Source: Escherichia coli (GTDB lineage Bacteria; Pseudomonadota; Gammaproteobacteria; Enterobacterales; Enterobacteriaceae). Taken from it: a stretch of 695 nucleotides of DNA. Where the stretch lies: NCBI RefSeq assembly GCF_003334385.1, contig NZ_QOWN01000150.1. One strand, 5' to 3'. This document shows positions 1-695 of the stretch, piece after piece; the first letter of the stretch is position 1, and every line of letters begins with the position of its first letter. The notes below the pieces were generated by a model. That model worked only from the letters and a program-made list of their open reading frames with translations, was not told the DNA's origin and ran no database searches. Both the position numbers and the translations under genes were made by a program.

Positions 1-30
1 CGACAGGCCGTATCTGATTTTTGCGTTCAT
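1..30 (-). CDS. 5' end (first 10 codons) of a putative prophage endolysin, GH24 lysozyme, RrrQ/YdfQ-like; gene continues beyond the left window edge
   Basis: Seen in sequence: minus-strand ATG at complement of 28..30 followed by AAC GCA AAA ATC AGA TAC GGC CTG TCG = M-N-A-K-I-R-Y-G-L-S, open to the window edge. Established knowledge, recalled from memory and not searched: the E. coli K-12 Qin prophage lysozyme RrrQ begins MNAKIRYGLSAAVLA.... Caveats: only 30 bp visible, and no Shine-Dalgarno motif within 15 nt upstream on the minus strand. Confidence 0.35.
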   Translation of the reverse strand, partial: MNAKIRYGLS

Positions 31-51
31 GGATATTTATCAGGATTTATC
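31..51 (+). repeat. Tandem direct repeat GGAT(AT)TTATC (31..41 and 43..51) in the divergent intergenic region; a third GGATAT copy lies at 66..71; possible protein-binding or operator-like site
   Basis: Seen in sequence: GGATATTTATC at 31..41 and GGATTTATC at 43..51, spaced about one helical turn apart; GGATAT recurs at 66..71. They lie immediately upstream of the putative lysozyme ATG (read on the minus strand as GATAAAT repeats) and upstream of the plus-strand small ORF. No confident match to a known operator consensus. Confidence 0.25.
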
Positions 52-91
52 GGTTCCGAATCCCTGGATATGTTAAGTCTTCAGCCCGCCA

Positions 92-331
92 GTGGTGGGC
101 ACTGGCGTAAACTCAACAATGCGAGATGGCTGCCTCGCAAAGATAATCAAAGCAATGGATGCACTAAGTAAAAATAACGCTGTGTCAGATTACCTGATCG
201 CCGAAATGGAACATCTAATTAAAGAAATACCAAAGACAGTTGCTCGTGATGATAAAAGATTCCTCAAGGCTGCTGAAGATGCTCTTTCAACAGTGAAGCG
301 CAGCTTAGATGCGCCGCGCGATCAAGAATAG
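92..331 (+). CDS. Hypothetical small protein (79 aa from GTG at 92, or 70 aa from ATG at 119); possible moron-like ORF; could be a chance antisense ORF
   Basis: Seen in sequence: open frame bounded by in-frame TAA at 74..76 upstream and TAG at 329..331. Candidate starts are GTG 92 and ATG 119, neither preceded by a recognisable Shine-Dalgarno motif. The predicted peptide is helical and charged (rich in A/K/L/D/E), with no signal peptide or transmembrane segment. Codons include ATA x2, CTA x2, AGA, CGA. The last 68 bp (264..331) overlap the 3' end of the minus-strand CDS, so one of the two readings in that segment may be non-coding. Hand-counted GC of 121..240 is about 40%, below the window average. 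Confidence 0.3.
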   Translation: MVGTGVNSTMRDGCLAKIIKAMDALSKNNAVSDYLIAEMEHLIKEIPKTVARDDKRFLKAAEDALSTVKRSLDAPRDQE

Positions 332-695
332 TTTCTTTCATTTCATCTGCTGCAAGCACCTCATTTTTTGTTGGGATGCTTTTTTTCAATTCAGCGATAT
401 AGCACTCCAGTTTTTCAATGCGTGATTCAATATCATCGTTTTCTGACCGCAATGCCGTCGGTGGCGTCTTCAGAGAACCAGTAATTATTCCCGGTAGTTT
501 TCCTCTGTAGGTTATCAACACATCCTGCGCCTCTAAAATTATGGGGCGCTTTTCCGGCGACTGCTCATCCCCTTCACATAAAGCGGCAGCAATATCCATG
601 AAAAACTGCTTCGCCTGTTTTTTCGCCTCAGCTTCGTAAAACTCCAGCGTGGCACCTTCAGTACGGTCAAGACTAATCGCCACATATGGCAACAA
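264..695 (-). CDS. Hypothetical protein, 5'-partial (N-terminus lies beyond the right window edge); predicted compact N-terminal region followed by a charged helical, possibly coiled-coil, C-terminus; function unknown
   Basis: Seen in sequence: uninterrupted minus-strand reading frame of 143 sense codons from the window edge (695) to TGA (complement of 264..266). The first codon TTG at 693..695 is probably a window-edge artefact, not the true start. The only internal ATG (complement of 597..599) has no Shine-Dalgarno-like purine run upstream. Amino-acid composition is protein-like, with a heptad-like charged stretch DDIESRIEKLECYIAELKK. Codon usage resembles horizontally acquired enterobacterial genes (ATA x3, CTA x2, AGA). 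No transmembrane-like stretch, so it is not a holin. No family recognised from memory. Confidence 0.7.
   Translation of the reverse strand: MLPYVAISLDRTEGATLEFYEAEAKKQAKQFFMDIAAALCEGDEQSPEKRPIILEAQDVLITYRGKLPGIITGSLKTPPTALRSENDDIESRIEKLECYIAELKKSIPTKNEVLAADEMKETILDRAAHLSCASLLKEHLQQP

Follow-up and report, generated by a model that had tools for sequence, protein, structure and literature searches.

A likely mosaic junction upstream of the endolysin gene R in a Stx-type prophage of Escherichia coli

The 61 bp between the start codon of the endolysin gene R and a plus-strand open reading frame (ORF) in an E. coli prophage (positions 31–91 of the 695-bp stretch analysed here, referred to as the window) are probably a mosaic junction within the late operon, in which the leader of R meets the leader of a decayed moron, and not a divergent operator. 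A first-pass annotation had proposed a shared divergent control region with GGAT(AT)TTATC repeats as binding sites for a regulator. Between the window and divergent homologues of the plus-strand gene, DNA homology starts at the CCCTGG at position 62 and spans the hairpin, the 5′ UTR, the gene and its terminator, and the R-linked identity between the window and PhiR40_1 covers positions 1–55 only; 31–91 is therefore composite, with 31 to ~61 belonging to the R module and ~62 onward to the moron. PhiR40_1 lacks the plus-strand gene, and 63 nt separate the end of its ydfR from R. In PhiR5_1, a sequenced phage with E. coli C as its recorded host, the leader is identical to that of the window through position 106.

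The lysis region and its features

The window is 100% identical to part of the chromosome of E. coli JNEC-KY176, is covered to at least 80% in 43 complete E. coli genomes with partial matches in ~3,000, and is the lysis region within a Stx-type lambdoid prophage. According to the annotation of the 100%-identical locus, the minus strand carries, in order, tRNAs, a SASA/NanS-p-like esterase, DUF1378, DUF826, class II holin S, a ydfR-family (DUF1327) gene flagged as a pseudogene, lysozyme R, small ORFs, Rz, and terminase. The same annotation bears out the lysozyme gene that had been called putative, with its ATG at 30..28 on the minus strand, which puts 31–91 immediately 5′ of R within a late operon whose genes all run the same way. 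The R start codon is fixed by an in-frame TAA three codons before it. The features of the window are as follows.

1..30, minus strand: first 10 codons (MNAKIRYGLS...) of endolysin R, a 177-aa lysozyme, ATG at 30..28 (RefSeq annotation of the identical locus)
31..61, minus strand: R leader and translation-initiation region with repeat copies 1 and 2 inside, a block that stays with R whatever lies upstream
31–41: repeat copy 1, GGATATTTATC, directly adjoining the R start codon
43–51: repeat copy 2, GGATTTATC, upstream of the R start codon
62..107, plus strand: moron 5′ leader, including the third 'half-site' with TATGTT (66–74) and the hairpin (homology to the DNA upstream of 62–71%-identical homologues)
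66–74: third 'half-site', GGATATGTT, which holds the −10-like TATGTT (69–74)
87..107, no strand assigned: perfect 8-bp inverted repeat CGCCAGTG-GTGGG-CACTGGCG with a 5-nt loop, conserved in 8 sequences
138..146, plus strand: sole remaining copy of CAAAGATAA, a deletion junction (alignment with the intact allele, L002 3138–3246)
140..331, plus strand: phrog_18136 remnant, codons 29–91 and stop, a pseudogene in the window (PHROG match and alignment)
264..695, minus strand: ydfR-family (DUF1327) ORF of the late operon, entering from beyond the window (annotation and profile matches)
354..386, plus strand: intrinsic terminator of the plus-strand gene, a stem-loop at 354–381 followed by a T-run (scan and compensatory pairs, L002 3454–3487)

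The late transcript of lambdoid phages is driven by the Q-antiterminated late promoter pR′. The genes here are the same as those of the lambdoid lysis cassette (S, R, Rz/Rz1; pR′), in the same order and on a single strand; they lie downstream of nanS-p-like esterase and tRNA genes, as is typical for Stx phages, and R shares 94–99% identity with endolysins from many Stx and lambdoid phages. Unlike the standard cassette, a ydfR-family gene and an antisense moron sit between S and R, and R has no Shine-Dalgarno (SD) sequence. PGAP family homology of the ydfR ORF is confined to 453–695 and beyond. Literature searches on ydfR and DUF1327 turned up nothing on the 31–91 intergenic region, and an Rfam scan (E≤1) matched no family in 31–110. 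A sub-threshold match to ar15, an alphaproteobacterial sRNA, at 453–553 on the plus strand falls within ydfR coding sequence and, at 19.7 bits (gathering score 40, E = 0.15), is almost certainly due to chance.

The repeats and the R leader

The two repeats and the half-site lie where the first-pass annotation had located them, but the ~12-bp phasing it described is irregular, with start-to-start distances of 12 and 23 bp. Copies 1 and 2 have just one exact 7-mer in common, ATTTATC, and the two occurrences of this core are offset by 10 bp. Among dinucleotide shuffles, an exact near-tandem repeat of 7 nt or longer arises in 3.3% when the 61-bp region is shuffled and in 40% when the whole window is, the span that had originally been scanned, such that the repeat is at chance level for the 695 bp and statistically weak. 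The enrichment of the four GGAT/ATCC words is equalled by 8% of shuffles. A search for the repeat elsewhere in the same prophage, as the first-pass annotation had suggested, came up empty, as the post-hoc pattern GGAT(N0–2)TTATC has no further occurrence in 12.7 kb.

The moron-less, PhiR40_1-type arrangement has a stronger signal. Its 63-nt ydfR–R spacer has three copies of TTTATC, with GGA 0–4 nt ahead of each (PhiR40_1, L005 1531–1593), and three copies of any hexamer turn up in only 0.5% of shuffles; the ancestral R leader therefore had the repeat as a real, if modest, feature. The window retains two of the three ancestral TTTATC units, and the third was destroyed by the moron junction in the window lineage. 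Three copies exceed the base-composition expectation, which hints at a specific role or a duplication history.

Conservation of the repeats was surveyed in 79 IMG/VR loci with R at 94–99% identity, which include 17 distinct leader types. Copy 1 is exact in 66 loci and reads GGATATATTAA in the remaining 13; for copy 2 there are 40 exact matches, 21 loci with GGGTTTATC and two with GGATTTATA (63 loci exact or one base off), and 16 from which it is absent. The repeats are thus conserved at homologous loci, a conservation that lies within near-identical recombining modules and is not independent evidence. The moron leader hairpin is present in only nine of the 79 loci and the plus-strand gene in only four. 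Since the repeats occur in loci without the plus-strand gene, they track R and not the divergent arrangement, and their reading as a shared operator is not supported; co-occurrence with a target gene, as expected for a repeat operator, was found for R alone of the two genes. PhiR40_1, whose upstream neighbour ydfR is co-directional with R, has the repeats fully intact, and copy 1 is kept in PhiR42_1 even as coding sequence at the 3′ end of ydfR. In this phage the R ATG overlaps the ydfR stop codon (ATGA), which suggests ancestral translational coupling of ydfR and R. Copy 2 is missing from mEp460, PhiR42_1 and about 16 IMG/VR loci, and the tandem pair is therefore dispensable.

The R leader has unusual translational properties. 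No anti-SD complementarity was found 5–10 nt upstream of the R start, and the anti-SD duplex energy of R (L001 5497–6030) is +0.6 kcal/mol, the weakest among the 15 annotated coding sequences of the 12.7-kb locus, the other 14 ranging from −3 to −11 kcal/mol. Positions −20 to −1 are 75% A+U, and the segment from −30 to +30 folds with only −3.8 kcal/mol and is almost unstructured. In the R mRNA the repeats read GAUAAAUCC and GAUAAAUAUCC, directly adjoining the AUG. R is presumably read on the long Q-dependent late transcript together with holin S and ydfR, as in other lambdoid phages. With no SD, a high A+U content and weak structure, SD-independent initiation is most likely for R, with ribosomes loading on the open A/U-rich leader in a manner of the S1 or A/U-enhancer type. 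A/U-rich enhancers are described as the most abundant enhancer class (PMC2176067), and the R leader resembles the A/U-rich SD-independent initiation regions described there in being A/U-rich, weakly structured, immediately 5′ of the AUG and devoid of anti-SD complementarity. Its repeat structure is not a known feature of A/U enhancers, and an enhancer role here is a prediction from sequence. What counts in the repeat units is probably just their A/U-rich composition, and they may be duplication scars at the R-proximal boundary. A predicted hairpin in the R leader, CAGGG/UCCUG, includes copy 2 and retains pairing through two one-sided changes among leader types; RNA folds of the two strands of the region have z-scores of about −1.65 (the CAGGG/UCCUG fold) and −1.69, neither of which is significant.

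The units could be more than this. GAUAAA(N0–4)UCC might constitute a specific cis-element of the R mRNA, either a dedicated translational enhancer or a site bound by a protein or sRNA, and so determine how much endolysin is made or when. The three units of the ancestral spacer favour this, as does their strict adjacency to an SD-less start codon and the conservation of copy 1 in every leader type. However, lysis cassettes that are otherwise intact have repeatedly lost units 2 and 3 or have them changed to GAUAAACCC, the conservation is that of recombining modules, and no Rfam family matches the leader, so that we regard a dedicated element as unlikely.

The plus-strand gene and its leader

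The right-hand part of the mosaic belongs to a small gene on the plus strand. An ORF starting at 92 had been noted, and mechanically it is present, running from GTG-92 to 331; GTG-92 is nonetheless not a gene start. The ORF matches PHROG 18136 (5e-41), a family without an assigned function, and corresponds to the 3′ two-thirds of a 91-aa gene that is intact in strains such as G1/2, where it has an AAGGAA SD and an ATG and is annotated by PGAP. Alignments of the window with the intact allele show that exactly 100 bp are absent, flanked by the 9-bp direct repeat CAAAGATAA, and that the SD, the ATG and 27 codons have gone with them. The ORF at 92–331 is therefore a dead remnant and its GTG start an artefact. 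The in-frame starts GTG92, ATG119 and ATG155 have no SD (duplex energies of −0.9 to −1.5 kcal/mol), and PGAP, which calls the intact allele, calls no gene at the remnant in the window genome. Homologues with 62–71% identity in unrelated contexts (phage CharmingMan and the IMG/VR contigs L024–L028) encode the N-terminal residues that are absent from the window, and the window allele is therefore the derived, deleted state; the converse, an insertion of 100 bp in the relatives, is ruled out by these same residues. The deleted allele is widespread: of the top 20 E. coli genome matches at least 10 have it, as do five of 19 IMG/VR loci.

Among intact homologues the gene has a dN/dS of 0.07–0.2 outside its overlap with the ydfR tail, indicating that the phrog_18136 family is protein-coding and under purifying selection. 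That the plus-strand ORF is a mere shadow of a minus-strand gene is ruled out, as the minus-strand frames are closed and dN/dS in the plus frame is low. Comparisons of the protein with NCBIfam, Pfam, PADLOC and PDB sequences gave nothing significant. The GC content of the cassette is 36–42%, against 52–57% in the R and S flanks, and its skews are reversed. The terminator has compensatory changes in three of its 10 pairs across homologues; the scan calls it in the intact allele and not in the window, which carries a weakening G376A mismatch.

These properties are those of a moron, in this case a small gene that brings its own SD and intrinsic terminator and is inserted in the antisense direction between ydfR and R. 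Its flanking genes are the same in related phages with and without it (present in G1/2; absent from PhiR40_1, mEp460 and PhiR42_1, in which ydfR abuts R), and it has its own terminator, is coding under selection and is distinct in composition. In phage lambda, bor is a moron that adjoins the lysis genes on the opposite strand, and the gene described here is similarly small, equipped with an SD and a terminator, variably present, lower in GC than its flanks and opposite to the late operon. Unlike a typical moron, no promoter was found for it by scan, phrog_18136 has no known function, its 5′ leader and hairpin are common to three unrelated ORFs, and the window copy is inactivated.

The terminator on the plus strand sits inside the minus-strand ydfR ORF, whose tail (...LKKSIPTKNEVL...; window 264–390) extends in antisense across the 3′ end of the plus-strand gene and the moron terminator. 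In the unrelated context of L024 (1676–1831) there is a 51-aa minus-strand ORF just after an AAGGAG, with a homologous tail and the same stop position. The plus-frame dN/dS is 0.28–0.86 within the overlap. The ydfR tail and the plus-strand gene may be a convergently overlapping pair, or the tail may be fortuitous read-in.

Phage H-19B (L004 1550–1600 compared with window 77–84 and 454–473) and many Stx1 and Stx2 phages resemble the window with ~85–453 deleted. A deletion of this type takes the hairpin, the moron, the terminator and the C-terminal part of ydfR, and GTCTTCAG flanks the junction on both sides; a short remnant of the moron leader therefore stays upstream of R.

The leader recurs in other contexts (L009, L024–L028), and ~62–106 precedes plus-strand ORFs unrelated to phrog_18136 in PhiR5_1 (phrog_2572) and Stx2 phage 86 (gp06). 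The hairpin is accordingly found upstream of the phrog_18136 gene in two unrelated genomic contexts as well as upstream of these two ORFs. There are no compensatory pairs in the hairpin among the 8 sequences, in which one-sided changes are split between the strands, and no T-run follows it on either strand. A single slot between ydfR and R is occupied by three unrelated plus-strand ORFs, phrog_2572 (L003 3142–3402), phage 86 gp06 (L008 1659–1973) and phrog_18136 (L002 3156–3431), and PhiR5_1 retains a remnant of the phrog_18136 3′ end (tblastn, residues 56–91). The shared slot and the PhiR5_1 remnant point to putative nested cassette replacement.

The −10-like TATGTT had been described as preceding the plus-strand ORF, and it does so within a leader that is conserved with the plus-strand gene even in an unrelated context. 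The A2 and T6 positions are kept both in this hexamer and in its homologue in distant relatives, TAAGGT. If TATGTT were used, transcription would start ~5 nt before the hairpin, which could, speculatively, act as a 5′ stabiliser. As three unrelated ORFs have the 62–106 leader in common, this segment, with the −10-like hexamer and the hairpin, might be a portable platform (a weak promoter and a 5′ stabilising stem-loop) driving interchangeable antisense accessory genes in Stx-type lysis cassettes, and/or the GAUAAA units might be a dedicated SD-independent enhancer setting the dosage of endolysin; we think it quite improbable that matters are so.

Promoters and the divergent-operator model

The divergent-operator model would call for a promoter in 31–91. 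In a sigma-70 scan covering the two strands in both the window and the intact allele, no site in this segment reaches the threshold of at least 9/12 consensus positions, in keeping with the initial impression that no good −35 is evident, and no intrinsic terminator was found there by scan. The best candidate identified manually is TTTATC-17-TATGTT, a putative weak promoter with 7/12 consensus positions, the −35 of which would fall in copy 2.

Part of the original proposal stands. Intact relatives do have a divergent plus-strand gene, the two ATGs being 125 bp apart, and the right half of the segment (~62–106) is conserved with it; the repeats are not tied to that arrangement. For 31–91 to be a shared divergent promoter/operator, with the GGAT(AT)TTATC repeats binding a regulator of both R and the plus-strand gene, one might invoke these truly divergent alleles, the retention of A2 and T6 in TATGTT and of TAAGGT at the same place in divergent homologues, and the weak −35 at 17-bp spacing that copy 2 would give. 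A regulated promoter proximal to the endolysin gene is known in phi80 (PMC6715736) and offers a precedent, but the GCCTAA/TTAGGC half-sites of RacR, from the phi80 lysN/RacR case (PMC6715736), are absent from the window. The repeats are kept in R loci that have no divergent gene, copy 2 is lost in several viable arrangements, no site on either strand passes the scan, the motif does not recur in the other 12.7 kb of the prophage, and the repeat is at chance level for the window. Two functional genes do not flank 31–91 here, since R is intact and the plus-strand gene has lost its SD, ATG and 27 codons; with its ribosome binding site and start codon gone, nothing is left to co-regulate. We consider a shared operator very unlikely.

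The likeness to the 10–11-bp phased direct-repeat operators of response regulators is superficial, consisting of two A/T-rich repeats with TTATC cores 10 bp apart. Unlike such operators, the repeats come with neither a promoter nor a cognate regulator close by, and statistics for the window do not support them; they are part of a transcribed leader and follow R, not the divergent gene. The consensus of a CpxR site is GTAAA-N5-GTAAA. Comparison of the repeats with the consensus sequences for Fur, DnaA, CpxR, PhoP, ArcA and IHF gave only partial matches, such as ATAAA-N5-ATAAA to that of CpxR.

An internal minus-strand promoter for R, with the GATAAAT units as −10 and a short-leader or leaderless mRNA explaining the missing SD, is extremely unlikely: GATAAAT resembles a −10 hexamer at three of six positions and there is a TG dinucleotide within TGATAAAT, but there is no −35, no minus-strand site passes the scan, R has no need of an extra promoter in a co-directional late operon, and a lysogenic host would pay a cost for an endolysin promoter that is not regulated.

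The mosaic junction of an R leader and the leader of a decayed moron is an ordinary finding, and its importance is small beyond annotation hygiene: an apparent divergent control region, complete with repeats, can arise where two phage modules have been joined. It also places on record a moron family without a described function that has a conserved leader hairpin and a terminator and lies antisense in the Stx-type lysis cassette. If the SD-less, A/U-rich leader of R were a tuned element, it would bear on the dosage of endolysin, and so on the timing of lysis and the release of Stx.
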